32,000 nucleotides of DNA from Candidatus Saccharimonadota bacterium (GTDB taxonomy: Bacteria > Patescibacteriota > Gracilibacteria > UBA1369 > 2-02-FULL-48-14): positions 1,274,354-1,306,353 of the forward strand of contig OZ246396.1 of the NCBI GenBank assembly GCA_965230905.1, in the 5' to 3' direction. The translations under genes and the position numbers were made by a program. The notes below the pieces were generated by a model. The model was not told the DNA's origin. It worked only from the letters and a program-made list of their open reading frames with translations, and ran no database searches. Positions 15,779 through 32,000 of this stretch are shown piece after piece (position 1 is the first letter of the stretch; the number at the start of each line of letters is the position of its first letter).

Positions 15779-15865
15779 AGTTTTAAATCTTACGCATAAT
15801 GAATAACTTTTCCCCCATTATCCTAGGGCAAATAGTCTTAGTCCAGACCATTTAAAGTGCCATCT

Positions 15866-15948
15866 TTTTTATACCGTCTCATTGTCTCATTTAGCATGAA
15901 ACGCCACAATTGTTTCTCACGGCAAGAAACGGTAGGATTAGGCAGTCC
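15866..15948 (+). repeat. intergenic repeat family 1, copy A (TGTCTCA iterons plus conserved core)
   Basis: Aligns with 25209-25292 at about 88% identity by hand (a 1-nt indel and about 9 substitutions). It includes an exact shared 23-mer, TTAGCATGAAACGCCACAATTGT. It ends 38 nt before ATG 15986. Confidence 0.7.
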
Positions 15949-15985
15949 ATGATTAATTGACCGAAACATCTCTCATTATACCGCT

Positions 15986-17641
15986 ATGCAGACTGTTGCC
16001 ATTTTTGGTGCTGGCGTCGCGGGACTGAGTGCCGCTCATGAATTTTCACGATTGGGATATCAAGTAACGATTTATGAATCGAATCCGGATGCTGGAGGGT
16101 TTTTTAGAAGTGCGCGAATGGCCAAAGATGAAGGAATGCCGTCTGAATATTCGTGGCATGGTTTTGGTCCTTGGTATCACAATACGTATGAAATCATGAA
16201 ACAGATTCCGTTTGACGACAACAACAGCGTTTATGATAAAAGTCTTTCGAGGTCAATCAATTATGGTATTGCCTATGATCAGACAAACGAAGATGAGGAT
16301 GTGAACGACAGCTTTAGAATGTTAAAACGGTTTCGAATGACAACGTGGGACAAAATGCGATGGGCAATCTTGCTTTTTAAAACGTGGAGCGCAAATAATC
16401 GTACAAAGGAATATTATTCAAGGCTAAATGCTTCGGAAGCATGGAAACCAATCATGAGCGATCGGGGCTGGAAAACATGGCGTGCAACATTTGGCCCTTG
16501 GGTTGGGTCTGATTGGACGCGCGCATCGCTCCATCATGTCGGACAATTTTTTCGTCACAATCTCATGTCCGGAGAAAGGCATGACCATAAAGGTGATGAT
16601 CAAGGAGAAGAATGGTCTCAAGGCTCAGGTGACGGCTGGCTTCTGCTTCGCGGACCAAGCAACGAATTCTGGTTCGATAAATGGATAAAATATCTTCAAG
16701 AAAAAGGGGTCAAGATGGTTTGGCAAACATCGCTACAGAAGCTTGTCTATGATGGTAAAAGCATCACTGGAGCTTGTTTGGCATCTGGAGACATGGTTTG
16801 TGCAGATATTTATGTCGTTGCGACAAGTCCTTTTTCTGCTGCTGATATTTTTGACCAAACACCAGAGCTTGCAGCTTTGGACGAACTACGTCTTTTTAGA
16901 CCACTTGTAGGCGATGGTCCACACACGCAAGTCTCTTTCCGTCTAGCATTTTCCGAACGAGTATCTTGGCCCAAAGAAAGAAGTGCGCTTCTTCTGCCCG
17001 ATTCAGAATTCAATCTGACGCTTTTTCCAGAAGAACAAGTGTGGTCAGACGATGTAGCACTTGGTGACGGTGTTATTTCATTATGGACCGGTACTGCCTG
17101 TGTGGCGTCGGTACCAGGGAAAATATATGGTCTACCGCTTGCCCGTTGTACAAAAGAACAATTCATTGAAGAAATAAAAGATCAGCTTTTCCGCTGTGCG
17201 GATTTAAATCGTCTGCTGAAGCAAGCAAATCAAGGAAGAGAGTTAAAAGATTTTTCTTTGTTAAGAATTGAAGTCTGGCATGAGTGGCAATTCTCTTCAG
17301 CAGGTATTAAACCACGCCAGCCCAAGTGGGTAATGAGTAATCATACTCAGCCATATCTCCCAACCCAACAAACACCGGTTTCAAATTTGCTTCTTGCAGG
17401 TGCTCACACGAAAACAGATGCAGATATTTGGAGTATCGAGGCTGCGGTTGAGAGCGGCCGACGTGCCGTAAAAGTCATCGAACCAGGCGTTCATGTTATT
17501 ACGCAATACAAGCCAGCCTGGCTTCGTGCAATCAGTGTCATCGATGACATTTGTTTCCGCTTGAGACTTCCCCATATCATCGATGTCCTCCTCTGTATTG
17601 TTCCTGTAATCATAATTCTTTCCCTAGTGAGACTTGCATAG
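15986..17641 (+). CDS. FAD-dependent oxidoreductase (amine-oxidase / phytoene-desaturase-like fold) with a C-terminal membrane anchor
   Basis: N-terminal VAIFGAGVAGLSAAHEFSRLGYQVTIYE (GxGxxG followed by an acidic residue). C-terminal LLLAGAHTKTDADIWSIEAAVESGRRA. Terminal hydrophobic helix VLLCIVPVIIILSLVRLA. Confidence 0.75.
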   Translation: MQTVAIFGAGVAGLSAAHEFSRLGYQVTIYESNPDAGGFFRSARMAKDEGMPSEYSWHGFGPWYHNTYEIMKQIPFDDNNSVYDKSLSRSINYGIAYDQTNEDEDVNDSFRMLKRFRMTTWDKMRWAILLFKTWSANNRTKEYYSRLNASEAWKPIMSDRGWKTWRATFGPWVGSDWTRASLHHVGQFFRHNLMSGERHDHKGDDQGEEWSQGSGDGWLLLRGPSNEFWFDKWIKYLQEKGVKMVWQTSLQKLVYDGKSITGACLASGDMVCADIYVVATSPFSAADIFDQTPELAALDELRLFRPLVGDGPHTQVSFRLAFSERVSWPKERSALLLPDSEFNLTLFPEEQVWSDDVALGDGVISLWTGTACVASVPGKIYGLPLARCTKEQFIEEIKDQLFRCADLNRLLKQANQGRELKDFSLLRIEVWHEWQFSSAGIKPRQPKWVMSNHTQPYLPTQQTPVSNLLLAGAHTKTDADIWSIEAAVESGRRAVKVIEPGVHVITQYKPAWLRAISVIDDICFRLRLPHIIDVLLCIVPVIIILSLVRLA

Positions 17642-17726
17642 AATACAGAAATGACATCGTAAAACAGGGTTGGTACAGTCTAGCACCACATTCCCAAAAT
17701 GCCACCAGCTCTGCGGATGGATGTTT

Positions 17727-17755
17727 TTGACAAATTAGAGCTTTCCCATTAACGT
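17727..17755 (+). promoter_or_regulatory. weak candidate promoter for the RND operon
   Basis: Perfect TTGACA (17727-17732), a 17-nt spacer, then TAACGT (17750-17755, a poor -10). Confidence 0.25.
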
Positions 17756-17779
17756 ACCGGCCAAGTACTATAAAAAATT

Positions 17780-18172
17780 GTGAAAAAACTTCTTCATATA
17801 ATTTTCGTTCTCATTGTTGGTTTTTCTCTAGCAGGTAATACTTGCTTTAAATCCCATAGTTTTTTTGATGCTGCTTATGCACAAACCTCTTCTATAGACG
17901 TACAGGATCATGAAACGGAAGATTTCGAAGATAAAGAACTTGTTAAAAACTCTCATTGTTGCGATGAAAGCGGTTCAAGCGTGTCCACTAATAGGGGTAT
18001 ATTTAAAAAAGAAACTACAAATTCATTTAAACAAATTTCCGATTTAAGCTGTAAACCAGCTCAAGATTTTCCCTTCACGCCAAATAATTTCACTACTGAA
18101 AATTGGCCACCGATGAGCTCTCAATTCCAGCCAGATTCCTTCTGGTTAGGAACTATCGTTAAAAGGGAATGA
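17780..18172 (+). CDS. small secreted Cys/His-containing protein (GTG start), first gene of the RND module
   Basis: Signal-like MKKLLHIIFVLIVGFSLAG, then NSHCCDESG. The C-terminal WPPMSSQFQPDSFWLGTIVKRE loosely resembles the tail of the 9366 ORF. Confidence 0.5.
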   Translation: MKKLLHIIFVLIVGFSLAGNTCFKSHSFFDAAYAQTSSIDVQDHETEDFEDKELVKNSHCCDESGSSVSTNRGIFKKETTNSFKQISDLSCKPAQDFPFTPNNFTTENWPPMSSQFQPDSFWLGTIVKRE

Positions 18173-18250
18173 GTAAAATTTATTTTCATTTCTAAGCTCA
18201 CCTTTTGATCTTCAGAAATATTAGTTTTTATTCAATTTACTTTTTTTTAT

Positions 18251-18388
18251 ATGTCGTCCAAAAAAATCTTCAGTGTTACTGGTTTAATTTTGTTCTTGCT
18301 AATTATTGCCGGATGCTCAGGACAAACAACTCAAAACGTAGATGAAAGTGAACCGCACGGACATAGTGATGAGGATGCCCATGAATAA
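18251..18388 (+). CDS. 45-aa lipoprotein with a His/acidic tail (not in the ORF track)
   Basis: ATG 18251 to TAA 18386-18388: MSSKKIFSVTGLILFLLIIAGCSGQTTQNVDESEPHGHSDEDAHE. Lipobox LIIAGC. It lies immediately upstream of the adaptor gene. Confidence 0.45.
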   Translation: MSSKKIFSVTGLILFLLIIAGCSGQTTQNVDESEPHGHSDEDAHE

Positions 18389-18413
18389 AAGATTATTTTT
18401 AACAGATATTATT

Positions 18414-20336
18414 ATGAAAAATCTGAAAGCAATTGTTGTAAAAAATCAGAAATTAATAGTTGGTCTTCTTATCAGCAGTGTTCTTCTTGTTACCCCATTG
18501 GCCTTTGCGAGTCCAGGCCACGATGATGCCACTGGTGAATCACAAACATCCGAATCTACTCCTTCATCGCAATTAGGCACTATCCAAGAAACAGAACTGG
18601 AAAAATTAGGGATTAGTAACGTTTCTTTTGCAGGTGAAGTGCTTTCAACAGATGATGTACGGATTCATCCGCTTGTTGAAGGTCAGCTCATTGAATTGAA
18701 TGTGAAAATTGGACAGTACGTAGAAAAAGGTCAGGTACTCGGTAGATTATCCGTTGCACCAAATCCAGATTTAATTGCCACTTTAGCCGAAAAGGCAAAA
18801 AATGCAGAACGGTCCAGGTTGCAAATGATTGTTATCGACAAAATTACCAATGAAAATAAACAACTGATTGATCAATTAAAAACTGTTCTTGATCGCGCAA
18901 AGGATTCGGCCATCCAAATTATTTATGCACAGGCTGAACAAAATCTTATTATTGCTCAAGGTGCCTCACAGCAATTAAGCTCGCAAAACGAAGTTAAAGA
19001 AGCCATCATCCTGTCAGCACAAGCCGATTATGAACAAGCACTGACAGCGGTTGATAGCGAATTAATGAACGTGCGCACAGCTGCCCAGAATGCGTATGTT
19101 GAATTTACGTCTATAGTATCTGATAACATTGGTCTAAGCACAAATAGCACAATAGACGATAATAATTTTAATGAAGCCTATGGGAAGTTTGATCAACAAA
19201 CACGAGGAAATTTTGCCTCAGCAGTTATGGCTTTTAAAAATGCATTTGAAGATGAGACCAAACTTCCAGAAAACGAAATAGATGTTTTTTTTGATGCGGC
19301 TGGTAAATTGCTTTTGAGTTCTCACCCATCAACCTATGTTTCCGCTGAAAAACTTGAAGAGCTACGTCAGATTCTTACTGAAAATGAAGTAGATTATTAT
19401 GAAGCTTTAAAGAATTATAAAGATGCCCTTGGTGAATTAGTACAGAAACAAGCTGATTACGAAACAGTAAAGGCCGAACAGGAAAGAGACATTGTGGGTT
19501 TAGAAGTAGACGCTAAAAATGCTCAAAGTTCTTATGAAATAACCGAAAGTTTAATAGAGGCGAAAAAAGTTGAAATTGAAACTGATTTTGAGAAGCAAAA
19601 ATTTGAATACGATAATCAGCTTCTTGAATTACTAAAAGAAAAATTACTTTATGAAGCTGAAGCTCAAGCGGCAGAAGTGGCTTACCAAGTATTCGCTTCA
19701 AAGATTGGCGGTCAGGAAATTGTCGCTCTGAAGTCAGGATATGTGTCGGGGGTATATATGAATCTTGGCGATCATGTAACGCCAGAAACTGCTGTTCTTG
19801 CTATCACCGGAGATATAAATGCAAAGAAGTTTGTTCGGTTTAAAATACCTGCCGATACTAAATTAGTGAGCGTTGGTGAAGTAGTTGATATCGAATCACT
19901 TAATTCTCAATTTGGAAAGACACAGGCAATAGTGACTGGTGTATCTCTTTCTCTGGATTCAAATGGGTTTTTCTTAGCTGATGCCGATTTAAATATAGAT
20001 GCCAATTTACCAGTGCACGCGAATGTACGGATAGTTCCAAACACTCAAAATAATCTTCTTGTTGTACCGCTTTCAGCTCTAGTGGCTGATGAAAATGGCA
20101 AATATAGTATATGGCTTGTCGATAAAGATACTGTCATACATAAAAAAGAGTTAACAATTGGAAGAACTTTTGGTGATCAAGTCGAAATTCTTGATGGAGT
20201 TGCATTGAATGATCAATTCATTGTCAAACCTGCAGCAGATTTGGTTGATGGATCAAAGTGGGAAGGAACTGTACCAACAGAAGAAGCTGAAGAACCTGCC
20301 CCAGAGGGTGACGGACATGGTCATTCTCACGATTAA
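18414..20336 (+). CDS. RND efflux periplasmic adaptor (MFP/HlyD family), unusually long
   Basis: I prefer ATG 18414 (MKNLKAIVVKNQKLIVGLLISSVLLVTPLAFA signal) over 18342. Lipoyl-like half-motifs are present (RIHPLVEGQLIELNVKIGQYVEKGQVLGRL and ALKSGYVSGVYMNLGDHVTPETAVLAI). A very long helical insert separates them. C-terminal beta domains follow, with the tail EGDGHGHSHD. Confidence 0.8.
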   Translation: MKNLKAIVVKNQKLIVGLLISSVLLVTPLAFASPGHDDATGESQTSESTPSSQLGTIQETELEKLGISNVSFAGEVLSTDDVRIHPLVEGQLIELNVKIGQYVEKGQVLGRLSVAPNPDLIATLAEKAKNAERSRLQMIVIDKITNENKQLIDQLKTVLDRAKDSAIQIIYAQAEQNLIIAQGASQQLSSQNEVKEAIILSAQADYEQALTAVDSELMNVRTAAQNAYVEFTSIVSDNIGLSTNSTIDDNNFNEAYGKFDQQTRGNFASAVMAFKNAFEDETKLPENEIDVFFDAAGKLLLSSHPSTYVSAEKLEELRQILTENEVDYYEALKNYKDALGELVQKQADYETVKAEQERDIVGLEVDAKNAQSSYEITESLIEAKKVEIETDFEKQKFEYDNQLLELLKEKLLYEAEAQAAEVAYQVFASKIGGQEIVALKSGYVSGVYMNLGDHVTPETAVLAITGDINAKKFVRFKIPADTKLVSVGEVVDIESLNSQFGKTQAIVTGVSLSLDSNGFFLADADLNIDANLPVHANVRIVPNTQNNLLVVPLSALVADENGKYSIWLVDKDTVIHKKELTIGRTFGDQVEILDGVALNDQFIVKPAADLVDGSKWEGTVPTEEAEEPAPEGDGHGHSHD

Positions 20337-20356
20337 TAATTGCTCACTAATTTTTT

Positions 20357-23300
20357 ATGCTCAACCAAATTATTCTCTGGGCGATCAATCATAAGTGGAC
20401 AACTATTATTGTCTCAGCCCTGATAGCAGTACTCGGAATCTTCAGTTTGCTCACTATGAAGGTTGATGTATTACCCAATATAAACAAACCAACGGTCGCT
20501 ATTTTTACTGAAGGAGAAGGTCTTGCGCCGGAAGAAATTGAACGTCTTATTTTAACTCCAATTGAATCAGCAGTTGCTGGTGCCCCAGGAGTTGAGCGTA
20601 TCCGAGGAACCGCTTCGTTTGGCCTTGCCATCGTTCAAGTCGAATTTAATTGGGGGTCAGATATTTATCGTAACCGCCAAATCATTCAAGAAAGAATTGC
20701 TCAGTTAAATCTCCCTGAAGGTGCAAAACCAACGCTTGGACCTGTATCTTCAGTCATGGGAGAGATCATGTGGGTAGGTATATCTTCAAAGGAAGCTAAT
20801 CTTGATGGTATGGACCTCAGAACTCTTGCTGACTGGACGATACGTCCTGCTTTATTACGCTTACCTGGAGTTTCGGATGTCATTGTTATGGGTGGTGATG
20901 TGCGTGAGTGGCAAATTAATATTAATGCTGAGCGACTTGCTCAATATGAACTTACCGTAGAAGATATTGTAGAAAATGTTGAGGGTGCGCTACAAAATCG
21001 AGGTGGTGGCATTCTTGTAGAGAATGAACTTGAATACCCGATACGAATTTTGGTAGCTCCAAATGAAATTAATGAACTTCAATCCCTTGGCGTGGGTTCT
21101 TTTAATGATATGCCTATAGTTTTAGGCGATGTAGCGAGCCTCATAGAGGGGCCAAGTCCCGTAAGAGGCGCAGCTTCTATTGATGGAAAAGAGGGAGTTG
21201 TCATGAGGATTGTTAAACAGCCGGAAGCAGAGACCCTTGAGGTTACCAAGCTTGTTGATGAAACACTGGAGTCGCTTGAAAAAAGCCTTCCAGAGGGAAT
21301 AGAACTTCACAATGATCTTTTTAGACAAGAATGGTTTATCACTGCAAGCCTTGAAAATGTTATTGAGGCACTACGAGATGGAATAATCCTCGTGATTATT
21401 ATTTTGATTCTTTTTTTGGCAAATACTAGAACAACTCTTATTACGCTGACAGCGATCCCCATGAGTATTCTGGTCACCGCGATCGTATTCAAGCTCTTAG
21501 GTTTTTCGGTCAACGTTATGACTCTGGGGGGTATTGCGGTAGCGATTGGCGAACTCGTTGATGATGCTATTGTTGATGTAGAAAATGTCTTTACGAGACT
21601 TCGTGAATGGAGAAAAAATGGCAAACAAGAACCTCTGGAAAAAGTTGTTTTTAAAGCATCGAGCGAAGTTCGAAATTCCATAGTCTATGCGACACTGCTC
21701 GTAGCAATTGTTTTCTTGCCCATCTTTTTTATTCCAGGAGTAGAAGGAAAGCTTTTAGCTCCTCTCGGACTTGCGTATCTTACTTCACTTATTGCCTCAT
21801 TATTTGTTTCTCTTACACTTACACCGGCACTTTGCGTTCTCCTTTTAGGATCAAGCAAAAAAGAGGAAACTCATGAAGAAACAAAATTCGTTCGTTGGAT
21901 TAAGAAAAATATTACTCCTCTTATAGGATGGAGTATTAATCATTCACGTACACTTATTACAGGAATTGTAGGTGGTCTTATGATTGCTATCGTGCTTTTC
22001 ATGTATGCTGGAAAAGAAGGTGTACCACCTTTTAATGAAGGAGCAGTTACTGTTGGGGTCGTTATGCCCGTAGGGACTGACCTTCAGACATCCAATGATT
22101 TTGCTTCTCAAGTTGAAACAAAGATACGTGAAATCCCTGGGATTGTACGCGTAAGTCATTTGACCGGCCGTGCGGGGGCAGATGCACATGATAGTGGCGC
22201 AAACACGAGTGAAATCCAAGTAACTTTTGATCACGGACTTGAAGAAGAGCGTACACGTCTATTTGGAGAAATTCAAAAGGTACTTGATGAATTTCAAGGT
22301 GCAGACTTTAGCCTTGGGCAACCAATTACTCATAAAATGGAAGAGCTCTTATCTGGCGTTCGTGCTCCGATCGTCATTAAAGTATTTGGTGATGATCTTG
22401 ATGCTATGAGAGAAGTAGCGGAACAAGTTCGGGATGAACTAAAACTTCAACCTGGAGTTACGAATGCCCAAATTCCAAAAGAAGTACTCATCCCTGAATA
22501 TCGGATATTTCCAAACCGTGAAAGACTCGGCTCACTTGGTCTGTCTTCAGGAGAAATCGCAGATGAACTTGAAGCCGGCCTCTTGGGTGTATCGGTGGGT
22601 CAGGTACAGCTTGGATCAGCTCAAGTACCCGTTGTAGTGCGCTATGACATTTTCAGTAAAGGGAATATGGCCGCAATCAGAAATTTATCCTTTGCAGGAG
22701 ATCAAGTTACTACATTGAACGACACTTCTGATATTCAAATTCAAGGAGGCTTAAACCGTCTTAGTCATGAGGGTGGAAAGCGAGTCATAATCGTAAGCGC
22801 TAATTATCAGGGAAAAGATATTGTTGGTGCGGTAGAAGAGGTAAAACAGGATTTTGAATCCATAGAACTTCCACAAGGGATAACTCTTTCTTTTGAAGGA
22901 ACATATAAAAGCCAAAAGGAAAATTCCCTGCTTCTTCTAATGCTATTTGGTGTCGGACTTTGCTTTATTTTTGGAATTTTGTATCACGCCTTTCGGTCAA
23001 GCGCTATTGTCATCCTTATAATGCTTAACATCCCAACCGCACTTATAGGAGGAATAATAGGGGTATGGGTAACTGGTGGTGTAATCAGTTTGGCCCATCT
23101 TATTGGTTTCATTTCTTTAGCTGGAATCGTTTCTCGAAATGGAATCATGCTAATTAGTCACACTATTAACTTAGTGAAAAAAGAAGGCTTACCATTCACA
23201 CCTGAAACCATGCTGCGTTCAACTCTTGATCGAGTGGTGCCCGTACTTATGACATCTTTGACTGCACTCCTTGCTCTTATTCCATTCTTATTGTCATCAG

Positions 23301-23461
23301 AGGCCCCAGGGAAAGAAATGCTTTATCCGTTAGCTGTTGTTATTTTTAGCGGTTTGACTGTATCAACGATTATTTCATTATTCTTAACCCCTTCTCTTTT
23401 CTATCGCTTTGGTAAAAAGACAATGCTTTCACATACCGCTTCAATCGAAAGTTCAAATTAA
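20357..23461 (+). CDS. heavy-metal-efflux RND permease (CusA/CzcA family)
   Basis: 1034 aa. The N-terminus (WAINHKWTTIIVSALIAVLGIFSLLTMKVDVLPNINKPTVAIFTEGEGLAPEEIERLILTPIE) is typical of CusA/CzcA. The TM4 motif is GGIAVAIGELVDDAIVDVEN. The topology is 12 TM helices with two large loops. Confidence 0.9.
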   Translation: MLNQIILWAINHKWTTIIVSALIAVLGIFSLLTMKVDVLPNINKPTVAIFTEGEGLAPEEIERLILTPIESAVAGAPGVERIRGTASFGLAIVQVEFNWGSDIYRNRQIIQERIAQLNLPEGAKPTLGPVSSVMGEIMWVGISSKEANLDGMDLRTLADWTIRPALLRLPGVSDVIVMGGDVREWQININAERLAQYELTVEDIVENVEGALQNRGGGILVENELEYPIRILVAPNEINELQSLGVGSFNDMPIVLGDVASLIEGPSPVRGAASIDGKEGVVMRIVKQPEAETLEVTKLVDETLESLEKSLPEGIELHNDLFRQEWFITASLENVIEALRDGIILVIIILILFLANTRTTLITLTAIPMSILVTAIVFKLLGFSVNVMTLGGIAVAIGELVDDAIVDVENVFTRLREWRKNGKQEPLEKVVFKASSEVRNSIVYATLLVAIVFLPIFFIPGVEGKLLAPLGLAYLTSLIASLFVSLTLTPALCVLLLGSSKKEETHEETKFVRWIKKNITPLIGWSINHSRTLITGIVGGLMIAIVLFMYAGKEGVPPFNEGAVTVGVVMPVGTDLQTSNDFASQVETKIREIPGIVRVSHLTGRAGADAHDSGANTSEIQVTFDHGLEEERTRLFGEIQKVLDEFQGADFSLGQPITHKMEELLSGVRAPIVIKVFGDDLDAMREVAEQVRDELKLQPGVTNAQIPKEVLIPEYRIFPNRERLGSLGLSSGEIADELEAGLLGVSVGQVQLGSAQVPVVVRYDIFSKGNMAAIRNLSFAGDQVTTLNDTSDIQIQGGLNRLSHEGGKRVIIVSANYQGKDIVGAVEEVKQDFESIELPQGITLSFEGTYKSQKENSLLLLMLFGVGLCFIFGILYHAFRSSAIVILIMLNIPTALIGGIIGVWVTGGVISLAHLIGFISLAGIVSRNGIMLISHTINLVKKEGLPFTPETMLRSTLDRVVPVLMTSLTALLALIPFLLSSEAPGKEMLYPLAVVIFSGLTVSTIISLFLTPSLFYRFGKKTMLSHTASIESSN

Positions 23462-23487
23462 CAGAATCGGATCAAATTTTTGAGTGA

Positions 23488-23520
23488 GGAGGGATTAGTG
23501 TGATTTTCACTAATTCCTCC
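23488..23520 (+). terminator. hairpin 27 nt after the RND stop
   Basis: GGAGGGATTAGTG (23488-23500) / CACTAATTCCTCC (23508-23520). The stem is 13 bp with one mismatch and the loop is 7 nt. No T-run. Confidence 0.35.
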
Positions 23521-23552
23521 TATACTTCCTTATATTCTATTTGTTCATAAAC

Positions 23553-23581
23553 AAAAAGCATGACACTTCGTCATGCTTTTT
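23553..23581. terminator. bidirectional rho-independent terminator
   Basis: AAAAA-GCATGAC-ACTTC-GTCATGC-TTTTT. The A-run and T-run flank a 7-bp stem. It lies between the convergent RND permease (stop 23461) and the acidic SLH gene (stop 23597). Confidence 0.65.
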
Positions 23582-23596
23582 GAGCTTATAGATTAC

Positions 23597-25111
23597 TTAG
23601 AACAGTTGTTTAGCAAGGATGATGATCTTTGCTACTTCAGCACGGTTAGGGACTTCATCAGGACGGAAAGTACCTGTTGCTTCGTCACCTGATATCACCC
23701 CCATGCTTAGCGCATAATTGATTGCATTTACATTTGCATGATCTAGCGCAACATCACTGAAGGGTGCTTCACTTGCCTCTGTTATATCTAGATCAAGCAC
23801 ATCAATGATCAATTGAATGAGTTCACCTCGCGTAACTTCTGACGTGTATTCAGCGTCGTCTACAAGAGCGTTCTCGACTCGACTTAGAAGGTCTGCGCTC
23901 AGTAGATCAGAGAAATCATTTTGGAGCGTGAGTGCGTAGCCACGAGCCCAGGAATCACCCTCTGCAATTTCCTCGGGGTCTTTATCTAAGACACACTGCA
24001 ATACAAACTTCATGCTTTCTCCAAACAGCACTTCATTTGAAGGGCGGAATTCGCCTAATTCATTTCCTGCTTCGTCCTTGAATCCTGAGATACAAGCCTC
24101 TGAATCCATTTGATCAACAAAGTTGAAGAACCATTCTTCATCATCTGTATCTTTAAACGGAATCACATCATCTTCGAATTTATTTTTAGTAGATTCATTT
24201 TTAATTTCTTCAATCTTGTCTTCCAGGTCTGAGACCTTCTCTTCAGAATCATCATCTGATTCAATAATTCCTTCGATGTCTGAGATGACTTCATCTTCAT
24301 CTACTCCACTTACATTGAACGCAGCAAGAGCAACGAGTAGGTCACTTAACTTAGATTCAACGGTCTCTGCAAGGGAAGTAAGAGCTTCGTCAAGTTCAGT
24401 GTTTGCCGCTTGGTCCTCTTCAGACAATAATTCTTCAACAAAATCTGCTATTTCTTCTTCAAAGTCTTCGAAACATTCATCAAACTCTTCAGCGTCACTT
24501 TCATCTGAGAGTACTGCTTCGGCAATACATTCTCCAAAGTCTTCACCAAGTTCAGATTCTTCACTGTTTGAGTGGATATCTTTACCTTTGGCGTACATCG
24601 CTTCATGTTTAGCTTCCTTGGCAAGATCTTCTGCTTCTTCGTAGTTTCCTGCATCAAATTTAGTTTGTGCATCAGCAAGAAGCACTTTTGCACCTTCAAG
24701 TCGTACAAGGGCATCAGACACATCCTTACCTTCAGCTTCTTTTTCAACAATAGTTTCTTCTGCTTCAGCAATTTCTTCCTCAGCGTCTTCAATCTTATCA
24801 GCTGCATTTTCCATATCAGAATCCTCCTCTTCATCTTCATCGGAATCGTCGCCATCTTCGCTGTCTGAGTCAGTATCTTCATCCTCATCTACATCTGAGT
24901 CACCATCACTGTCTTCATCTTCATCTTCATCTTCATCTTCATCTTCATCCTCATCCTCATCGTTACCTGAATTATCAGAGTCTTCTCCTTCATCCGATAA
25001 TTCAACAGCGTCTGCATCAAACACGGACACTTCGATATCAGCGATGGACGCTAAGGCTATTGATGCAGGTACAAGAAGTACCAGCAGAGCTACAAATAGG
25101 TTTTTATACAT
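23597..25111 (-). CDS. secreted hyper-acidic protein with C-terminal SLH domains
   Basis: Signal peptide MYKNLFVALLVLLVPASIALA. A long D/E tract follows (DEDEDEDEDEDEDEDEDSDGDSDVDEDEDTDSDSEDGDDSDEDEEEDSD). The centre is acidic and helical. C-terminal SLH repeats are present (PFSDVALDHANVNAINYALSMGVISGDEATGTFRPDEVPNRAEVAKIIILA). Confidence 0.8.
   Translation of the reverse strand: MYKNLFVALLVLLVPASIALASIADIEVSVFDADAVELSDEGEDSDNSGNDEDEDEDEDEDEDEDEDSDGDSDVDEDEDTDSDSEDGDDSDEDEEEDSDMENAADKIEDAEEEIAEAEETIVEKEAEGKDVSDALVRLEGAKVLLADAQTKFDAGNYEEAEDLAKEAKHEAMYAKGKDIHSNSEESELGEDFGECIAEAVLSDESDAEEFDECFEDFEEEIADFVEELLSEEDQAANTELDEALTSLAETVESKLSDLLVALAAFNVSGVDEDEVISDIEGIIESDDDSEEKVSDLEDKIEEIKNESTKNKFEDDVIPFKDTDDEEWFFNFVDQMDSEACISGFKDEAGNELGEFRPSNEVLFGESMKFVLQCVLDKDPEEIAEGDSWARGYALTLQNDFSDLLSADLLSRVENALVDDAEYTSEVTRGELIQLIIDVLDLDITEASEAPFSDVALDHANVNAINYALSMGVISGDEATGTFRPDEVPNRAEVAKIIILAKQLF
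24912..24961 (-). repeat. in-frame hexanucleotide microsatellite encoding (DE)n
   Basis: (TCTTCA)x6 then (TCCTCA)x2 on the + strand, which is GAAGAT/GAGGAT on the coding strand. Confidence 0.9.
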
Positions 25112-25208
25112 GATTTTATGGTTAAATCATATTATTTTACCCTACTTTATAGGTATAGTCAAATTGCAGCCTCCGAGGGGCTACTTATAAATAGCCAAAT
25201 TTGATTCC

Positions 25209-25292
25209 TTTTTATACTGTCTCAAATGTCTCATTTAGCATGAAACGCCACAATTGTGTCTCACGACAAGAATAGGTAAGATGAGACAGTCC
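25209..25292 (+). repeat. intergenic repeat family 1, copy B
   Basis: About 88% identical to 15866-15948. It contains three direct TGTCTCA units and one inverted copy (TGAGACA, 25282-25288). It runs directly into a fragment resembling the start of the 108-nt repeat (25291-25316). Confidence 0.7.
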
Positions 25293-25371
25293 CAAGGGTA
25301 CTAGACCCGTGTGGCCAGCCAATCACTTATAGAGTATGACAGGTCTCCTTGTACATTTCAGGAACCTGGAA

Positions 25372-26034
25372 TTACAGCTCTTCCCCTGTAATAGTCTTAT
25401 AGACGTGCTGAGCGCCTCGTCCTGCTCGCACATTTTCAGAGTGCATGGCCTGGATTTGTTGGTACATGGCAGTTGCTTCGTCACCAAAGACTAAACGACC
25501 TGCAGTGTCGGAAGGGAGTTGTTCAGCAACGAATGCTACTCGCAGTGGACTTTCCCCTTGAGTGAAGTGCATAGCCATCCGAGGAGGTTGAACGTCGTCA
25601 GGATTTAAAGTAGTGCTAAAAATGTCACCATCGGAACAAAAAGCTCTGAGTGCGGCCACCGAGATCTCTCTTGCCGCACGCATATTTTCTGACACAGTAC
25701 TTCTTAGTGTTGCATCGTCCATTACGGAGATCCCCAGAAGCCTGGCGAACATCATCCCTGCGATTCTATTTCGTGGGTGTTCAGGAGTATATAGAGGTGT
25801 TAATGGCTTTGGCGTAGCGTATACGAAAGGACGATCTTGGTGATTCGTTGGGGTGTCATCAATCTGGCTCAACACTTCTCTTTCCACAAAAGCTTGTAAC
25901 CAAGTGTATGCATCCCGACCTAAAGGGAGATCAGCGGCCCCTTGACTCATTCCTTCTGCGAAGTGATCTTGCTCTAATTCTGAGAGTTCAGCCTGCTTAG
26001 CGAGGTCTTTGAAATTGATTGGGGCTTTATCCAT
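25372..26034 (-). CDS. hypothetical protein (220 aa)
   Basis: Long ORF, GC-richer than its neighbours. No motif recognised. Confidence 0.55.
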   Translation of the reverse strand: MDKAPINFKDLAKQAELSELEQDHFAEGMSQGAADLPLGRDAYTWLQAFVEREVLSQIDDTPTNHQDRPFVYATPKPLTPLYTPEHPRNRIAGMMFARLLGISVMDDATLRSTVSENMRAAREISVAALRAFCSDGDIFSTTLNPDDVQPPRMAMHFTQGESPLRVAFVAEQLPSDTAGRLVFGDEATAMYQQIQAMHSENVRAGRGAQHVYKTITGEEL

Positions 26035-26070
26035 GATTTTAGTGATGGCTCATATTAGAGCATAATTTCC

Positions 26071-26134
26071 TTGTAACGGCAAGAAAAAGCTCAGTTGTCT
26101 CTCAAAGCGGTAAACGGTAGAATTGGAGCGGCCC
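26071..26134 (+). repeat. intergenic repeat family 1, degenerate copy C
   Basis: TTGTAACGGCAAGAAA...TTGTCTCTCA...AAACGGTAGAATTGGAGCGGCCC parallels the 3' half of copy A (TTGTTTCTCACGGCAAGAAACGGTAGGATTAGGCAGTCC), with an internal insertion. It ends 27 nt before ATG 26161. Confidence 0.35.
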
Positions 26135-26160
26135 GCAGCCATAATATCAATTCATTCATC

Positions 26161-26628
26161 ATGGCACATCCAAACAGTGTAAAAGTTTTCTTAGAACGAA
26201 ATGAACGTCTTTGTAATCCTCGCGAGTACCCCAATCTTATGTCACCAGAGTTGCAGCAAGGCATTCACGAGAGACTTCTCGCAGAATCACGTTTTTCTCA
26301 AAGGGCTATAGGGGATGACCGCCCTAGAGAATTTCCTTCAAGTTTTAGCTCTGGAGAGGAAGTGCTCATTTTTATTACGGAGCAAACAGGTTTAGCTGCT
26401 GCAGATGTTTTACAAAAAGGACCATGGCTTCAATCTTTTGCTGGAAATTTGAGACTGGATTCTATCTTCTACGGTTCACAGATTGGAAATGTGGCTTCCA
26501 TAGTTTTTCATGGAAATGAACATTTTGCGCTACATCTCATATATAAGCCGGGGGCGGCGTGCCAAGTATTAACTCCTGCTGAATATCAGGTTTGGGAGGA
26601 CGAACGATGTTCCCTATCCCAAGGGTAA
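26161..26628 (+). CDS. hypothetical protein (155 aa from ATG 26161; the track ORF begins at TTG 26095)
   Basis: ORF with no recognisable motif. Its last codons run into the 108-nt repeat. Confidence 0.5.
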   Translation: MAHPNSVKVFLERNERLCNPREYPNLMSPELQQGIHERLLAESRFSQRAIGDDRPREFPSSFSSGEEVLIFITEQTGLAAADVLQKGPWLQSFAGNLRLDSIFYGSQIGNVASIVFHGNEHFALHLIYKPGAACQVLTPAEYQVWEDERCSLSQG

Positions 26629-26725
26629 GATCCACGTGGCCGCTCTACTTCCTTAAAATCTTTCCCATTGCCTTCCCTTTGGCTAATTCATCGATCAATT
26701 TATCCATGTAGCGGATTTTTTGCAT
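26618..26725 (+). repeat. 108-nt direct repeat, copy D1
   Basis: Identical to 31893-32000 at 106 of 108 positions (C>T at two sites). It ends at the AT of the MFS start codon. It contains CCACGTGG and AATTCATCGATCAATT. Confidence 0.9.
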
Positions 26726-27929
26726 GAGGTGGAGTTTGGTTTGGGATCATGATTTAATATTTCTATGCCAGGTTCATTACAAAATTCTCACACTGAATAT
26801 TAATTTTCTTTATAGTTCCGTTTTTTTTCAGCACTTTGCTTATGGATTGATCATTCCAACTTTGCTTGTTTGGCAACACCAAGCGGGACTCAGTTATGCT
26901 GAAATCGGAACCATCCAAGCGGTAGGATTTTTATTTATGCTTATCGCTGAGATTCCAAGCTCTTATTTTGCAGATCGAGTCAGTAAAAGAATCACTCTTC
27001 TATTGGGCTTTGCATTTTCCATACTGAGCTTCATCTTTTTAATTCAAGCAGATAATTTTGTGTTTTTTCTTATTATGCAGATTTTATTCAGTGTTGGTGG
27101 TGCCTTTTTTTCCGGCACACAAGAAAGTATGCTTCACGATTTAATGAGTGTAGAAATAAAAATGACCAAATCCTTGGGGAAGCTAAGTATTTTTGACGAA
27201 ACGGGTACTGTTTTAGGCATGCTGGGATCGAGTTTTTTTATTAGTAATTACTCTATTAAAGCTAGTTTTATTGCTGGTTTAGCGGCACTTATAATTGGCC
27301 TCTTAAGTATTGCGCTAATAAGCACGCCAAACACTCTTTCTCGTAAAGAGGATACCTTTTCAAGTTCCACAAAAGTTCATATTAAATCAGTAAGCACTTT
27401 GATTATTATTCTGTTTTTCTCCTTCATGGCCCTTCGAGGAGAAATCTTGTTTCAATCGACTTTCGAAGAACTCCATATAGATCTAGCTTTGCTTGGGCTG
27501 ATCTATATTTTCGGGAAAATATTTTCGATTGTAGGCTCGATGTATGCACATAAAATCGAGGATTGCCTTGGTTTTAAAAAGTCTATGACCCTAGTGGCCT
27601 GTCTACAAATTGCTAGTTTCAGCATCTTATTGTTTTCGGAACTAATCTTAACAATAACCGCTATTTCTATCTATTTCTTCTCTGAGAATATTTTTCGGAA
27701 TATTCGTGATTCATGGATATTATACCGTGCTCCGCTTAATCGACGTGCAAGCGCCATTTCCAGTGTTAGTTTTTCGACAGCTGTTTTTGCCTTAGCATTT
27801 ACCCCTATAATTGGGCTTGGGATAGATCAGGCCGTATATTGGGGTATTGCCATACTTGTATTCGCCAAATTAATAGGTTTTGTTCTTGTTTTTAACGGTC
27901 GGTTGAATAAACCTAACTTACAGTTCTAA
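26724..27929 (+). CDS. MFS transporter
   Basis: About 400 aa and polytopic. A motif-A-like [14 protein letters not shown] follows TM2. The start codon is uncertain. The stop overlaps the convergent 397-aa gene by 12 nt. Confidence 0.8.
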
Positions 27930-29111
27930 CCATGATGTCCTTAGCTGCCCATCTTTGGTAAGCATGGCATCTCTTGGATTTTCTATCCCACTCAGCAACA
28001 GTTGTTTTGGACCCAGAACATAGACACCGCCCAATCCTGTTAGGGAATAATACTTATATACTTCAGCTCTAGCGGTCTCTAAATCTAATTGAACTATTTT
28101 TGCAACCTCTAATGCAGTCTCTTCAAAGTTTTTTCCTTGTAAGGTGAAATGATCGCCCAATAATCTTGCCACTCTTAATCGTGCCTCAAAGATCCTATCC
28201 GCCAGCATCCACTCTTCAAGCTTTCTGGCCTCGAGGCCCCTTTCTTTGTCCAACAAATCAAACATTTTTCTCACTTGTTCTGACCCAGAGCCCAATTTTT
28301 TCATAAACTGATGCTCAGATAAAACAGCAACAGACTCAAGAAATGCTCTTTCTCTCATTGAATCTATATAAGTGCCCACAGATATGTTGGCATGCTGCGA
28401 AAGATGCGCAATGTGCGCAGCATTGTGAGGAATATCGAAAGAGAATTGTGTCGCTAAATCATACTTAGCTGGCGTGACGTAATTAATTACACCATCCCTT
28501 GTCGTCCAAAATAAATGGTGATTTTTTGGATTTTCAATAATTGAAACGTTTACGTTTTCCACAGCTGGCATCTCAAAAATGTTTTCTATAACAAATTGTA
28601 TAAGTCGTTTGGTCTCTTCTAGGGAAACCTTGAGCTCAAGTCCGGGTAAGAGTTCAGGATGTGTGAATTGCCCCCCTTTGTCTTGAAGTTCAGCTACTCC
28701 AGCCTCTAAAGCATTTTCATACATGCCTCTCATGCCAAACATTTCCTCGATTTGGGTGCGTGTGATCAAAAGATTCTGATCAAAATTCCCCTCCTCTAGT
28801 TCTTCGAGAATTTTATACAAAACTCCCCTAAGCTCGCTGACTAAAGTTTCACCTAAAATTGTGATCAATTGGGCGTCAGTTGTAACCCTCAAAATCCTAG
28901 CAATGTCTTGTTTTACTTTTAAAAGTAGTACTGGATCAGCATGTGGGACGAGTGGTTTATTTAAAACCAATACATCTAATAATGTTCTTACAAAATTTGA
29001 GATAGCATCACGATCAACATTGGAAAGGCCCTCTACATAGCACCTTCCAAGCATGCTAGAAAGCATAGGAAGGTCATATGTTTTCGCAGGATGATCAGTG
29101 GGTATCTCCAT
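27918..29111 (-). CDS. hypothetical protein (397 aa), last gene of the four-gene operon
   Basis: The start codon directly abuts the stop of the upstream GTP cyclohydrolase-like gene (CAT 29109-29111 and TTA 29112-29114). It is helical and contains IPHNAAHIAHL...ERAFLESVAVLSEHQF and C-terminal YKYYSLTGLGGVYVLGPKQLL. No family is confidently recognised. Confidence 0.7.
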   Translation of the reverse strand: MEIPTDHPAKTYDLPMLSSMLGRCYVEGLSNVDRDAISNFVRTLLDVLVLNKPLVPHADPVLLLKVKQDIARILRVTTDAQLITILGETLVSELRGVLYKILEELEEGNFDQNLLITRTQIEEMFGMRGMYENALEAGVAELQDKGGQFTHPELLPGLELKVSLEETKRLIQFVIENIFEMPAVENVNVSIIENPKNHHLFWTTRDGVINYVTPAKYDLATQFSFDIPHNAAHIAHLSQHANISVGTYIDSMRERAFLESVAVLSEHQFMKKLGSGSEQVRKMFDLLDKERGLEARKLEEWMLADRIFEARLRVARLLGDHFTLQGKNFEETALEVAKIVQLDLETARAEVYKYYSLTGLGGVYVLGPKQLLLSGIENPRDAMLTKDGQLRTSWLEL

Positions 29112-30101
29112 TTAGTCTTTTAGACTCTCGCCGATATTACCAAGATTTGTATCTATAACCGTACGTACATCATGAATGTGGATACTATCGTTAAGTATAG
29201 ATTCAATTCTCAATCTTGTATCATCTGGGGCCTTGGTACCAAACTTTTCATAGAGACCTGCAGCAACGTCACGAACCACATCTTCAGTAAACTGTGGCCT
29301 ACTCAATGCTCTAACGACTAAATCGTGTTCATCAGGCCTTTTGAGAAGTTCATTTACCAAATGGGTTGTTGTATCTAAGACGGTTAAAAGTTCCCGAGTT
29401 GAGATCTCTGGATGCCGTTTATCCATCATCACCGTGATGGTACCTCTTTGAGTATGAGTCCCCGTTAGAACAGTATTTAATATTGCATTGATTTGAGTTG
29501 TATCAAAACCAAGTTCTTGTAAACGGGGCACCACCGAAAGTTTTGTATAGGTTCTTGTACACGGGCAGGCAGTGATATTATAGGCCTGTACTCCAGTTCG
29601 TTGCCTCACAATAGATTCTTCTGCCACCGCCTCACTGAGTAATATAACTTTATCATGAGTTTGTTTTCCTGTTTTTCTTGTATTTCTATGGTGTAAATGT
29701 GTAGCTGAAATTTTCACTATGCCTAGGTTTGAGCTCTGCTTTTCTCTTAATCTTTCGGCAAGAGCCACTGCAAATGTGTCTAAATCAGGGTAGTTCCCTT
29801 CAGCTAATTCAAATAATGCCTCTTCGCATCGAGACATATGTATTCCTCTATGACCCTTTAAATCTACAGATAAGGTGACGTCACATAAAATTGGCGACTT
29901 CTTAGTTGGATCTGTGATGTCATCTATTTCGATATATACTTGCTGGCTTGTGATACCAGCTTCATCGATTTCTATTGGGTTTAGGGGCTGTGACTCCGGG
30001 ACATCCGTAATTTTATCTAGAAATTTTCTGAACTCTTCTGGATCTCTAAATTCAGTTCCGTTAAGTTGATAGTTTACTGGATCATAAATGCGTTCAGGCA
30101 T
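29112..30101 (-). CDS. GTP cyclohydrolase I type 2 / MptA-like (FolE2, DUF198 family) protein
   Basis: HRGIHMSRCEE, ITACPCTRT and GTHTQRGTI match the FolE2/MptA motifs as I recall them (G-x-HMSR, CPC, H-x-QR-S/G). It carries an N-terminal extension of about 60-70 aa relative to short FolE2 proteins. Confidence 0.65.
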   Translation of the reverse strand: MPERIYDPVNYQLNGTEFRDPEEFRKFLDKITDVPESQPLNPIEIDEAGITSQQVYIEIDDITDPTKKSPILCDVTLSVDLKGHRGIHMSRCEEALFELAEGNYPDLDTFAVALAERLREKQSSNLGIVKISATHLHHRNTRKTGKQTHDKVILLSEAVAEESIVRQRTGVQAYNITACPCTRTYTKLSVVPRLQELGFDTTQINAILNTVLTGTHTQRGTITVMMDKRHPEISTRELLTVLDTTTHLVNELLKRPDEHDLVVRALSRPQFTEDVVRDVAAGLYEKFGTKAPDDTRLRIESILNDSIHIHDVRTVIDTNLGNIGESLKD

Positions 30102-30116
30102 ATTTAAATTAGGTTA

Positions 30117-30905
30117 TTAACTGATTAAAGATAGTACCTTTAACCTCATCTGATGAGGTAATAGTGGTAACAATTTTAAAAACCATTTGTCTCTTCCAAA
30201 AGTCAAATCTGTTGGATTCCTTGGTAGATTCGTCAACAAAAATTCTGCAAAGGCTTCTGGGGAGTGAATTTTCCCACGCTGCCTCATTGTTTCTGCAAAA
30301 TCTGTCATTCCTGCGATTTCAAAGAATTGAGTGTCCGTAACACCTGGCCTAGCAACTGTCACCTCTATTCCTTGCGAGGCTACTTCTTGTCTCACAGATT
30401 GAGCAAAGCCCTCAAGCCCAAATTTACTTGCGGAATATGCTGATAAATTAGGGAAGCCCATTTTCCCGGCTAGAGAAGTAATAAAAATCAAGTGACCTTT
30501 TCTGAACTCAATCATGACTTTCAAAATTTCTTGACTTAGCCTCATTGTCCCAAGGAGGTTGGTTTTTATTATACCCTCCATTTTATCTGTAGAAATATCT
30601 GCAGTTGGTGCACTCAACCCAGTTGCAGCATTATTGATAAGCATATCGATTCGTCCCGTGGTGCCTAAAGCCATTTCTTTTATATCTCTACTTGAGTTTG
30701 GATCGGAAATATCTGCAACCAAAGCGTGTATCGTTCCTGAAACTTGACCAGATACTTCTTCCAATTCCATTAAGAGATTAGCTCTTCTGGCTACAGCAAT
30801 TACATGAGCGCCATTTTCTGCAAGTTGGAGCGAAACTGCTCTGCCTATCCCAGAAGATGCACCCGTAACGATAGCCGTTTTTCCTTCGTAATATTTTTCA
30901 GACAT
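30117..30905 (-). CDS. classical short-chain dehydrogenase/reductase (SDR)
   Basis: TGASSGIGRA, NNAATG and the S...YSASK catalytic motif. Confidence 0.9.
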   Translation of the reverse strand: MSEKYYEGKTAIVTGASSGIGRAVSLQLAENGAHVIAVARRANLLMELEEVSGQVSGTIHALVADISDPNSSRDIKEMALGTTGRIDMLINNAATGLSAPTADISTDKMEGIIKTNLLGTMRLSQEILKVMIEFRKGHLIFITSLAGKMGFPNLSAYSASKFGLEGFAQSVRQEVASQGIEVTVARPGVTDTQFFEIAGMTDFAETMRQRGKIHSPEAFAEFLLTNLPRNPTDLTFGRDKWFLKLLPLLPHQMRLKVLSLIS

Positions 30906-30914
30906 AACTTGTTA

Positions 30915-31829
30915 TTAATGAATGTTAAATCTAATCCTCAACAAATGTCTCTCCAGATCTGAAAAAGAAGTTCTGCCATGTAGGATCTCGTGATTATTCA
31001 GGAATAAAACTTGTCCTCTTCTTAAATTAAATCTAATCTGAAGAGATGGATCGTTTAACACCTCATCTAGGTGATCCATGGCTTGAGCAATAGACTGATC
31101 CTTTTCTTTTGGATTCATTGTGTAAGCTCTTTCAATGGTCTCTCTGCGATATCTAATGTATGGAGATTCTCCTATGATGGGAGCTGAAAAAATCTCCAGA
31201 GAATCCTCGGTAGCTGTTGCCGTAAAGGCCGTCGGCACTCGAAAGGGGACTTTCTCTCTACTTAGTATTTCCACTGAATCTCTTAATCCCCTGGCAATTA
31301 ATTCGTGAATCGCCATCCTAGCATCGACCAAAATACTTTCACCTTCACCATTTTTATCTGGATTGAGACACCAAAGACTGACTCCACTCTCAGGCTCAGG
31401 AAAATATTGAGTATCGGTATGAAGACCAGCGTGCCCTTGATGTTCAGAGTAGGTTAAATTATCGCCAGTTTGAGTAGGGTCTGCTTTGATTGGCCACACT
31501 ATATTTTTTTTGACTCTATCTGTGCACGTGGTAACACCTATGAGATTGCTGATCGCAACCATATAGGCCTGCATTAATTCTGGAGAATTCTCGAATTCTT
31601 CAAAGGCGAGACCCTCAGCTAAGCAAAATCTAGTACCCTCATTTAGCCTTTGTATGACTGCTTGAGCAAAGGATTGAAATTTGATTGAGCTTCTAACCTT
31701 TTCATCAATATCACCAATTGGTAAATGGCTAATAGCTTCTAACTCTTCAGGAGAGAGACTAATACTGAGATTGATCTTTTCTGGTGAACTTGCTATCTGG
31801 TTTCTATTCCAAACCTCAAATTTTTCCAT
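30915..31829 (-). CDS. TauD/TfdA-family Fe(II)/2-oxoglutarate dioxygenase (gamma-butyrobetaine-hydroxylase-like)
   Basis: HxD facial-triad motif in GLHTDTQYFPEPESGVSLWCL. The distal His/Arg lie in LNNHEILHGRTSF. First gene of the operon. Confidence 0.8.
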   Translation of the reverse strand: MEKFEVWNRNQIASSPEKINLSISLSPEELEAISHLPIGDIDEKVRSSIKFQSFAQAVIQRLNEGTRFCLAEGLAFEEFENSPELMQAYMVAISNLIGVTTCTDRVKKNIVWPIKADPTQTGDNLTYSEHQGHAGLHTDTQYFPEPESGVSLWCLNPDKNGEGESILVDARMAIHELIARGLRDSVEILSREKVPFRVPTAFTATATEDSLEIFSAPIIGESPYIRYRRETIERAYTMNPKEKDQSIAQAMDHLDEVLNDPSLQIRFNLRRGQVLFLNNHEILHGRTSFSDLERHLLRIRFNIH

Positions 31830-31892
31830 GAGAGTCTTTAAGAGTAGTTCACGATTTTATATTTTTTAAACTTTAAATCAAGGTAAAATTGA

Positions 31893-32000
31893 CCCAAGGG
31901 TAAGATCCACGTGGTCGCTCTACTTCCTTAAAATCTTTTCCATTGCCTTCCCTTTGGCTAATTCATCGATCAATTTATCCATGTAGCGGATTTTTTGCAT
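31893..32000 (+). repeat. 108-nt direct repeat, copy D2 (truncated by the window end)
   Basis: See D1. The offset between copies is exactly 5275 bp. The window ends at the position matching the AT of the MFS ATG, so the repeat and a paralogous gene start may continue. Confidence 0.9.

Follow-up and report, generated by a model that had tools for sequence, protein, structure and literature searches.

The 32,000-nt stretch of Candidatus Saccharimonadota DNA analyzed here (contig OZ246396.1, positions 1,274,354 to 1,306,353; called the window below) contains two direct repeats of 108 nt on either side of a five-gene cassette that encodes an MFS transporter, a TauD/TfdA-family dioxygenase, an SDR, a GTP cyclohydrolase of the FolE2/MptA family and U397, a 397-aa protein of an undescribed family. 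An earlier reading made from the letters alone (the sequence-only reading) had taken the repeats for non-coding DNA and had explained them either as a duplicated promoter or 5' region of paralogous genes or as the ends of a cassette that recombination could mobilize or amplify. We found that each repeat is a copy of the 3' end of a DUF2200 gene whose body lies just past the end of the window. We propose, with a probability of roughly 0.55, that the repeats are an insertion-duplication scar left by the single-crossover integration of a circular DNA carrying the cassette.

Realignment bore out the original description of the pair. Copy 1 (26618-26725) and copy 2 (31893-32000) lie in direct orientation with a spacing of 5,275 bp and are identical at 106 of 108 positions, with C in copy 1 versus T in copy 2 at 26640/31915 and at 26664/31939, and their left flanks are, as had been stated, unrelated in sequence. 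The longest identical tract between the copies is 61 nt, the others being shorter. No other long-range repeat in the window reaches such quality, and chance cannot account for 108 nt matching at 98% within 32 kb. The edge of the window falls on the boundary of copy 2, as does the end of another contig, L006. In the longer contig L001, the homology between the two copies ends at the base equivalent to window position 32000 (111 nt if one mismatch is allowed), and the length of 108 nt is therefore genuine. A sensitive search detected no third copy of the 108-mer in the window, in L001, in a second long contig (L025), or in the 10 kb past the window; a third copy as a sign of tandem accretion was accordingly rejected for the window, L001 and L025.

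When read on the minus strand, the repeat spans DUF2200 codons 90-115 (26 codons) with the stop codon, followed by 27 bases of downstream sequence. Coding sequence thus accounts for 81 of the 108 nt, which had been supposed to be non-coding DNA. The gene encodes 115 aa (Pfam PF09966), lies on the minus strand directly past 32000, and occupies 9563-9910 of L001. The 26-residue protein tail encoded by copy 2 agrees with DUF2200 homologues. Upstream of copy 1 on the same strand there is no gene body; instead, the antisense of the MFS 5' end is found. Relative to copy 2, copy 1 has one non-coding change and one that converts Glu110 to Gly. All 113 DUF2200 homologues have an acidic residue at position 110 (Glu in 104, Asp in 9), and because copy 1 has Gly there, we regard it as a decaying orphan fragment. 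Judged by these sequences, copy 2 is the working end of DUF2200, and copy 1 is an untranslated orphan abutting the flank that once followed the gene. An open reading frame in that flank (ORF 26095-26628) converges on copy 1, and the outermost 11 nt of the copy hold the last three codons and stop codon of the ORF. Most simply, the ancestral locus would have had DUF2200, 16 intervening bases and the stop codon of this convergent ORF, in that order; the present state is most simply described as the ancestral locus plus 5,167 bp of inserted DNA and a 108-bp duplication of the target. The DUF2200 protein encoded here shares 77-83% identity with its homologues in Chitinophagaceae (Bacteroidota) and in Peregrinibacteria, reflecting either unusually strong conservation for a 115-aa protein or horizontal transfer. 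Coordinates of these features and of the cassette genes are collected in Table 1.

Table 1. Features of the repeat-bracketed cassette and its borders (window coordinates).
Feature	Position	Strand	Evidence or remark
Flanking ORF, 177 aa (155 aa in some assemblies)	26095-26628	+	No family match
Copy 1, orphan duplicate of the DUF2200 3' end	26618-26725	-	tblastn of DUF2200 residues
Copy 1, 27-nt tail	26618-26644	-	
Copy 1, 26 codons and stop	26645-26725	-	
Inserted cassette, 5,167 bp, five genes	26726-31892		Between the repeats
MFS transporter	26724-27929	+	Pfam MFS_1, E = 2e-25
U397, 397 aa, undescribed family	27918-29111	-	
GTP cyclohydrolase, FolE2/MptA family	29112-30101	-	PF02649, E = 2e-39
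SDR	30117-30905	-	PF00106, E = 2e-51
TauD/TfdA-family Fe(II)/2-oxoglutarate dioxygenase	30915-31829	-	PF02668, E = 2e-26
Copy 2, 3' end of intact DUF2200	31893-32000	-	Alignment to L001, translation, PF09966
Copy 2, 27-nt tail	31893-31919	-	
Copy 2, codons 90-115 and stop	31920-32000	-	
DUF2200 remainder	Equivalent to 32001-32267	-	Beyond the window

A repeat that coincides with the end of a contig could be an assembly artefact, a chimeric or collapsed contig end, which the sequence-only reading had named as the outcome that would overturn its account. Besides the exact termination of both the window and L006 at the repeat boundary, several short contigs break within the repeat, which is typical assembler behavior at repeats. 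Against this stand three long assemblies that carry the whole structure, with both copies in the same order, and are a few single-nucleotide polymorphisms (SNPs) apart elsewhere: the window, ENA ERZ1292638 NODE_1, and NCBI JBBTQH010000001.1. Genes for the TauD-like protein of the window occur on a number of public Hainich aquifer metagenome contigs, among them L001 (1,307,106 bp). L025, an NCBI contig of 1,301,131 bp from a metagenome-assembled genome, has its genes in the same arrangement and encodes an identical DUF2200 protein; NCBI attributes this identical protein to 'Patescibacteria group bacterium'. Both L001 and L025 are in reverse-complement orientation to the window, with 9-11 mismatches over approximately 10-11 kb, all far from the repeats; as far as the sequences tell, the three assemblies independently represent one population. 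In each of five short contigs assembled from other samples, copy 2 joins the DUF2200 body to TauD, and the two SNPs that distinguish the repeat copies stay linked to their own flanks. The repeat, at 108 nt, is also probably shorter than the sequencing reads. We consider an artefact extremely improbable.

Several details of these assemblies deserve mention. The mismatches of the window relative to the other long assemblies all fall within approximately 22160-23200, in an RND transporter gene (20357-23461): there are 11 versus L001, within 22576-22786, and 9 versus L025, within approximately 22160-23200, the remaining ~10 kb being identical in each case. This clustering resembles local recombination or a hypervariable tract. 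In the low-coverage contig L002 from another sample (6363-7461, equivalent to approximately 26830-27929 of the window), the MFS gene is split into ORFs of 167 and 171 aa by a 1-nt gap relative to L001, due either to a sequencing error or to a population variant with an inactivated transporter. A 5,274-nt Logan contig resembles a circle of the unit length. We rejected it as evidence for a circle, as it begins at repeat offset 32 and finishes at offset 30, exactly like the unitig that the integrated form gives in a k=31 de Bruijn graph.

The MFS gene directly follows ORF 26095-26628 on the plus strand, with copy 1 immediately before it, and this copy must be co-transcribed with MFS or hold its promoter. 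Together with the near-identity of the copies, this arrangement is what one would expect if the 108-mer were a functional element under selection, such as a promoter or 5' leader of paralogous genes, a structured RNA, a terminator, or a small ORF. No paralogous gene follows copy 2, however. Extension past 32000, the check that had been suggested for the paralogue explanation, revealed no second MFS-like gene in the longer contigs; the body of DUF2200 lies there on the opposite strand, the homology stops, and the plus strand is antisense to DUF2200. These results refuted the explanation of a duplicated promoter or 5' region. A further claim, that each copy ends at the AT of an ATG, held for copy 1 at the MFS ORF and failed for copy 2, where the next base on the plus strand is A and gives ATA. 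The CAT common to both copies is the reverse complement of the Met90 codon of the minus-strand DUF2200 gene, and the resemblance to a start codon is a coincidence of strand. The longest MFS ORF does begin at the ATG created across the junction between repeat and cassette, yet its sequence makes TTG at 26736 the more likely start, with GAGG at 26726-26729 before it, and MFS homologues start near residues 21-30 of the window ORF. The cassette edge is then 10 nt upstream of the likely MFS start. To judge from this arrangement, MFS is probably transcribed through the orphan fragment as a side effect of the insertion.

Scans of the repeat itself were uniformly negative. Rfam searches (E <= 1 on 25-32 kb and the gathering threshold on the whole window) gave one tRNA-Gln and otherwise chance matches only (bxd_1 at 21 bits, IS009). 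No stable fold was found in either strand of either copy (z = -0.4 to +0.4 relative to shuffled controls), and consensus scans detected no promoter-like or terminator-like site within the repeat. An RNA element, a promoter, and a terminator were each rejected on these results. Moreover, the repeats that surround the same cassette at two other loci (L021 and L015, see below) are unrelated sequences, and in the orphan copy an invariant residue is radically altered. A selected function for the 108-mer is thus very hard to credit, and we concluded that the repeats have no regulatory role of their own.

The structure agrees closely with that expected for integration of a circle by homologous recombination. 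In such a Campbell-type integration, a circular DNA with the cassette and a DUF2200 3' end would undergo a single crossover with the same gene end in the chromosome; the crossover would keep DUF2200 intact, place the cassette directly behind it, and leave the displaced copy at the other border. In the window, the duplicated homologous segment directly flanks the insert in direct orientation, and its outer flank is continuous with the stop codon of ORF 26095-26628. The repeat runs exactly from DUF2200 codon 90 through 27 nt past the stop, with homology stopping on both sides. The most likely machinery would be the host's own homologous recombination, which we favor over a site-specific enzyme because there is no integrase or transposase nearby, the targets are unrelated, and neither a border motif nor a viral carrier was found. 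Neither an integrase nor a transposase turned up in Pfam scans of ORFs and precomputed Pfam assignments covering the window and 10 kb to each side, no terminal inverted repeats pair the cassette ends, and neither a protein-pattern scan nor an exact-DNA scan of IMG/VR detected a phage or viral carrier. A transposon or insertion sequence was rejected for lack of a transposase and terminal inverted repeats and because the duplication is 108 bp rather than 2-15 bp.

Protein-pattern scans found the same gene set clustered at 15 other loci, and every locus with an organism name belongs to the candidate phyla radiation (CPR): Saccharimonadales, Paceibacterota, Gracilibacteria, Peribacteria, and unclassified Patescibacteria. 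The conserved cluster was recorded for L014, L015, L019-L024 and L028-L036, of which L015 carries a radical-SAM gene where TauD stands elsewhere. This clustering argues that the cassette is a discrete, transferable module. Self-comparison of approximately 200 kb of these loci yielded only three pairs of kilobase-spaced direct repeats, in the window, L021, and L015, and each pair brackets the cassette. In L021 (Paceibacterota), the duplicated stretch is the final 134 nt, stop codon included, of a gene for a 355-aa histidine kinase (958-1091); its second copy (6382-6515) lies between the last cassette gene, 20 nt away, and a DUF1003 gene. In L015, 160 nt from the 5' part of a lipoprotein gene (300-459) is found again at 6457-6616, across the cassette, where it belongs to a truncated copy of 78 aa. 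The three bracketed loci thus use unrelated target genes, DUF2200, a histidine kinase, and a lipoprotein, and their cassette borders share no motif beyond trivial AT-rich words.

The two additional repeat pairs are 86-89% identical. Synonymous and non-synonymous differences number 13 and 2 in L021 (ratio of non-synonymous to synonymous rates, dN/dS, 0.035; Fisher p 1e-7) and 12.8 and 12.2 in L015 (dN/dS 0.17; Fisher p 5e-5), with dS approximately 0.6 in both. Since the differences are mainly synonymous, these copies diverged as working genes, as donor and recipient or as paralogues, and not by decay in place. The gene order of L021 was also informative. FolE2 followed by U397 occurs in 15 of the 16 loci and is broken only in L021, where the order U397, MFS, TauD, SDR, FolE2 is a circular permutation of the order TauD, SDR, FolE2, U397, MFS of the window, and where the permutation break falls exactly at the flanking repeats. 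Joining the window repeats would give a divergent MFS and TauD adjacency such as is present in L019, L020, L021, L023, L029, and L032. As a comparison of gene orders, the permutation lends indirect support to a circular intermediate.

The same anatomy would arise if the repeats were attachment sites, attL and attR, of a tyrosine or serine recombinase encoded elsewhere and the cassette were an integrase-less, cis-mobilizable islet that brought a replacement DUF2200 end. An intact gene on one side with an orphan 3' end on the other is the classic integrase-island pattern; gene 3' ends are used at two of the three bracketed loci; and known att identity segments extend to lengths such as that of the repeat, with approximately 112 bp for Streptomyces SLP1. 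The neighborhood is also rich in mobile elements, as homologues of a nearby 220-aa gene lie beside integrases and a transposase and a Bro-N protein is encoded in the vicinity. Nevertheless, no recombinase was found in the window or in 10 kb on either side, three unrelated target genes are used with no shared border motif, the duplicated stretch in L015 is the 5' part of a gene rather than its 3' end, and the cassette edge, 10 nt from the likely MFS start, resembles an arbitrary break and not an att arm. We regard site-specific integration as unlikely, though it comes closest to single-crossover insertion among the alternative routes.

A route without any circle would join linear foreign DNA to the chromosome through one-sided homology combined with an illegitimate join, template switching during replication, or a widely staggered break; the join would have fallen by chance 108 nt upstream of the end of the homologous anchor, duplicating the target. 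The MFS-side border is tight and arbitrary-looking and has 2-3 nt of microhomology, CT(T/C)ATG; the synonymous-biased divergence in L021 and L015 fits a piece of a donor gene joined to a recipient gene; and DNA uptake is widely attributed to CPR bacteria. This route requires, however, that the incoming DNA already had the exact host junction, because the 27-nt tail, including 11 nt of the neighboring ORF, is present in both copies. It also leaves the circular permutation of L021 at its repeats unaccounted for, and such events usually delete the target instead of duplicating it. We judge it a little less probable than site-specific integration.

Several observations weigh against the single-crossover interpretation. 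No circle junction or cassette-free allele was present in any assembly, and no cassette-free relative with an empty site was found. In L018, the nearest relative with synteny of the 134-aa gene and DUF2200, a different gene lies downstream and no TauD follows DUF2200, with the contig ending there. A junction of DUF2200 with ORF155 (the flanking ORF in its 155-aa form) did not occur around DUF2200 homologues (L016, L017, L018) or around homologues of the 220-aa gene (L037-L040). Bracketing repeats were present at only three of the approximately ten loci in which both flanks are visible. The position of MFS varies among loci, and part of the apparent permutation could be ordinary rearrangement. 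The model also needs a circle that first picked up a piece of its target gene, a step for which it offers no account. Finally, the cassette has a GC content at third codon positions (GC3) of 0.30-0.35, equal to that of its neighbors at 16-26 kb, and composition does not set it apart; the match makes base composition uninformative as a test of foreignness. Along the window, GC3 is 0.45-0.61 for most genes in 1-14300 (6PGD, MutY-like, M23 peptidase, P-type ATPase) and 0.26-0.43 for all genes in 15300-32000 (RND pump, SLH protein, cassette), and because of this sharp shift between 14300 and 15300 the cassette sits in a larger region of atypical composition.

Whatever their origin, the repeats also bear on what the locus could do next, since direct repeats allow deletion or tandem amplification of the DNA between them by homologous recombination. 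Recombination between the repeats would delete the cassette as a 5,275-bp circle and restore the DUF2200/ORF155 junction, or would amplify the cassette in tandem, and the excised circle could re-integrate in any relative having the same gene end. Amplification was not seen; each long assembly has one unit and no third repeat copy. The second of the two earlier explanations, a cassette that recombination mobilizes or amplifies, therefore stands in its essentials: a duplicated gene 3' end does bracket an inserted cassette, with the same kind of bracket in two other CPR lineages, whereas amplification, a circle junction, and a cassette-free variant were absent from every available assembly. We offer as a tentative extension, one we doubt more than we believe, that CPR bacteria carry the cassette as a mobile unit that perpetuates itself without an integrase. 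A crossover between the repeats would free a circle holding the cassette and one repeat; the circle would be taken up by a relative, where a single crossover at the same gene end would regenerate the repeats; and occasional aberrant circles would gain new gene ends, giving different targets and permuted gene orders.

The locus was compared with several known systems. Islands integrated by tyrosine recombinases at gene 3' ends likewise have direct repeats made of the target gene 3' end. They too leave the gene intact at one border with an orphan 3' piece at the opposite one, they carry accessory metabolic or transport cargo, and their excision circle would carry one repeat. The window locus has such att-like repeats with a gene end. 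It differs in that the cassette and the 10 kb on each side encode no integrase or excisionase, in that the insert is only 5.2 kb of purely enzymes and a transporter, and in that homologous cassettes are bracketed by unrelated gene duplications, and so have no common att. The cis-mobilizable elements (CIMEs) of Streptococcus thermophilus are att-flanked islets without recombination or conjugation genes. The cassette resembles them in its att-like repeats from a gene 3' end, its lack of its own recombinase, and a mobility that would need functions supplied in trans; CIMEs, however, are decayed relatives of a resident integrative and conjugative element that shares their att, and here there is no such element or matching integrase and no third repeat. 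The amplifiable units of DNA (AUDs) of Streptomyces, like other repeat-flanked amplifiable loci, are direct-repeat-flanked units open to RecA-dependent tandem amplification or deletion. They too hold a few kilobases of cargo between direct repeats, but the cassette is single-copy in every assembly and its repeats are far shorter than typical AUD repeats.

Campbell-type insertion-duplication, in which circular DNA integrates by a single crossover, occurs in naturally transformable bacteria and in laboratory mutagenesis. It shares with the window locus a homologous segment on both sides of the insert, the lack of a dedicated recombinase, reversibility, and the survival of an intact gene when the segment includes a gene end. 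It differs in being known mainly as a laboratory tool or for plasmids, whereas here the donor circle is deduced. To our knowledge, natural recurrent insertion-duplication of a metabolic cassette has not been described in CPR bacteria. We concluded that the locus is a small genomic islet with a duplicated target-gene end and no visible recombinase, and that its anatomy is nearest to that of laboratory-style insertion-duplication.

Within the cassette, TauD, SDR, FolE2, and U397 form a four-gene operon with TauD first, to which MFS is convergent. The promoter scan placed a promoter-like site for this operon at 31881-31854, in a 63-nt unique spacer outside the repeat. The FolE2/MptA-like protein scored 166 bits for MptA and 98 bits for FolE2 in NCBIfam, both under the cut-offs. 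The gene set probably specifies a pathway from GTP to a pterin-like or deazapurine-like product, and a TauD-SDR-FolE2-U397-MFS pathway was described in none of the libraries searched. U397 had no match in Pfam, NCBIfam, PHROGs, or PDB sequences, and eight relatives were found among 5.8 billion proteins. Residues invariant across these relatives are PHN..H..H, E, E, and R. An AlphaFold2 model (mean predicted local distance difference test score, pLDDT, 91) gave 3o0y, 3u24, 5wvu, and 1k9x as best Foldseek matches, with template modeling (TM) scores of 0.4-0.48. On this model, the fold appears closest, at a distance, to DUF885 lipoproteins and M32 carboxypeptidases, and U397 would be enzyme-like and metallohydrolase-like, with the PHN..H..H motif in place of HExxH. 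The possibility that U397 is a hidden recombinase was rejected, as the top fold matches of the model are of the DUF885/M32 type with no recombinase among them.

Some neighboring features were also recorded. Homologues of the 220-aa flank gene (25372-26034) have two tyrosine integrases as neighbors in one relative and, in a second relative, an rve-family transposase (loci L039 3537-7826, L040, and L037 1631-2446), with no DUF2200 nearby, which suggests that this gene belongs to, or marks, a mobile-element hotspot. The Bro-N-domain protein, which is of phage type and has a strong match to a phage family (phrog_15286, E = 1e-93), is encoded at 7940-8899 of L001, two genes upstream of DUF2200. A second direct repeat in the window, at approximately 15864-15948 and 25208-25292, is ~66-85 nt long with 89% identity; both copies are intergenic, one upstream of a 551-aa amine-oxidase gene and the other upstream of an acidic SLH protein gene, and on the minus strand they fold to -32 and -36 kcal/mol without an Rfam match. 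The SLH protein (504 aa, 23597-25111, minus strand) has a signal peptide, a C-terminal SLH domain, and a long Asp/Glu-rich low-complexity tract encoded by 12-nt periodic repeats (24767-24985).

With this interpretation, what had looked like a regulatory repeat becomes a dated, readable record of the entry of a metabolic cluster into the 1.3-Mb genome of a CPR bacterium, an ultra-small inhabitant of groundwater. The cargo is uncharacterized, consisting of a GTP cyclohydrolase, a reductase, a dioxygenase, a new metallohydrolase-like protein, and a transporter, and its named carriers are all CPR bacteria. The repeats predict that it could be lost or amplified in one step. The occurrence of the same scar at different genes in two other CPR lineages, in one of them with permuted gene order, points to a simple, recombinase-independent transfer of operon-sized DNA. 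If the self-perpetuating unit proposed above were general, it would provide a route of gene gain for tiny genomes with few classical mobile elements.

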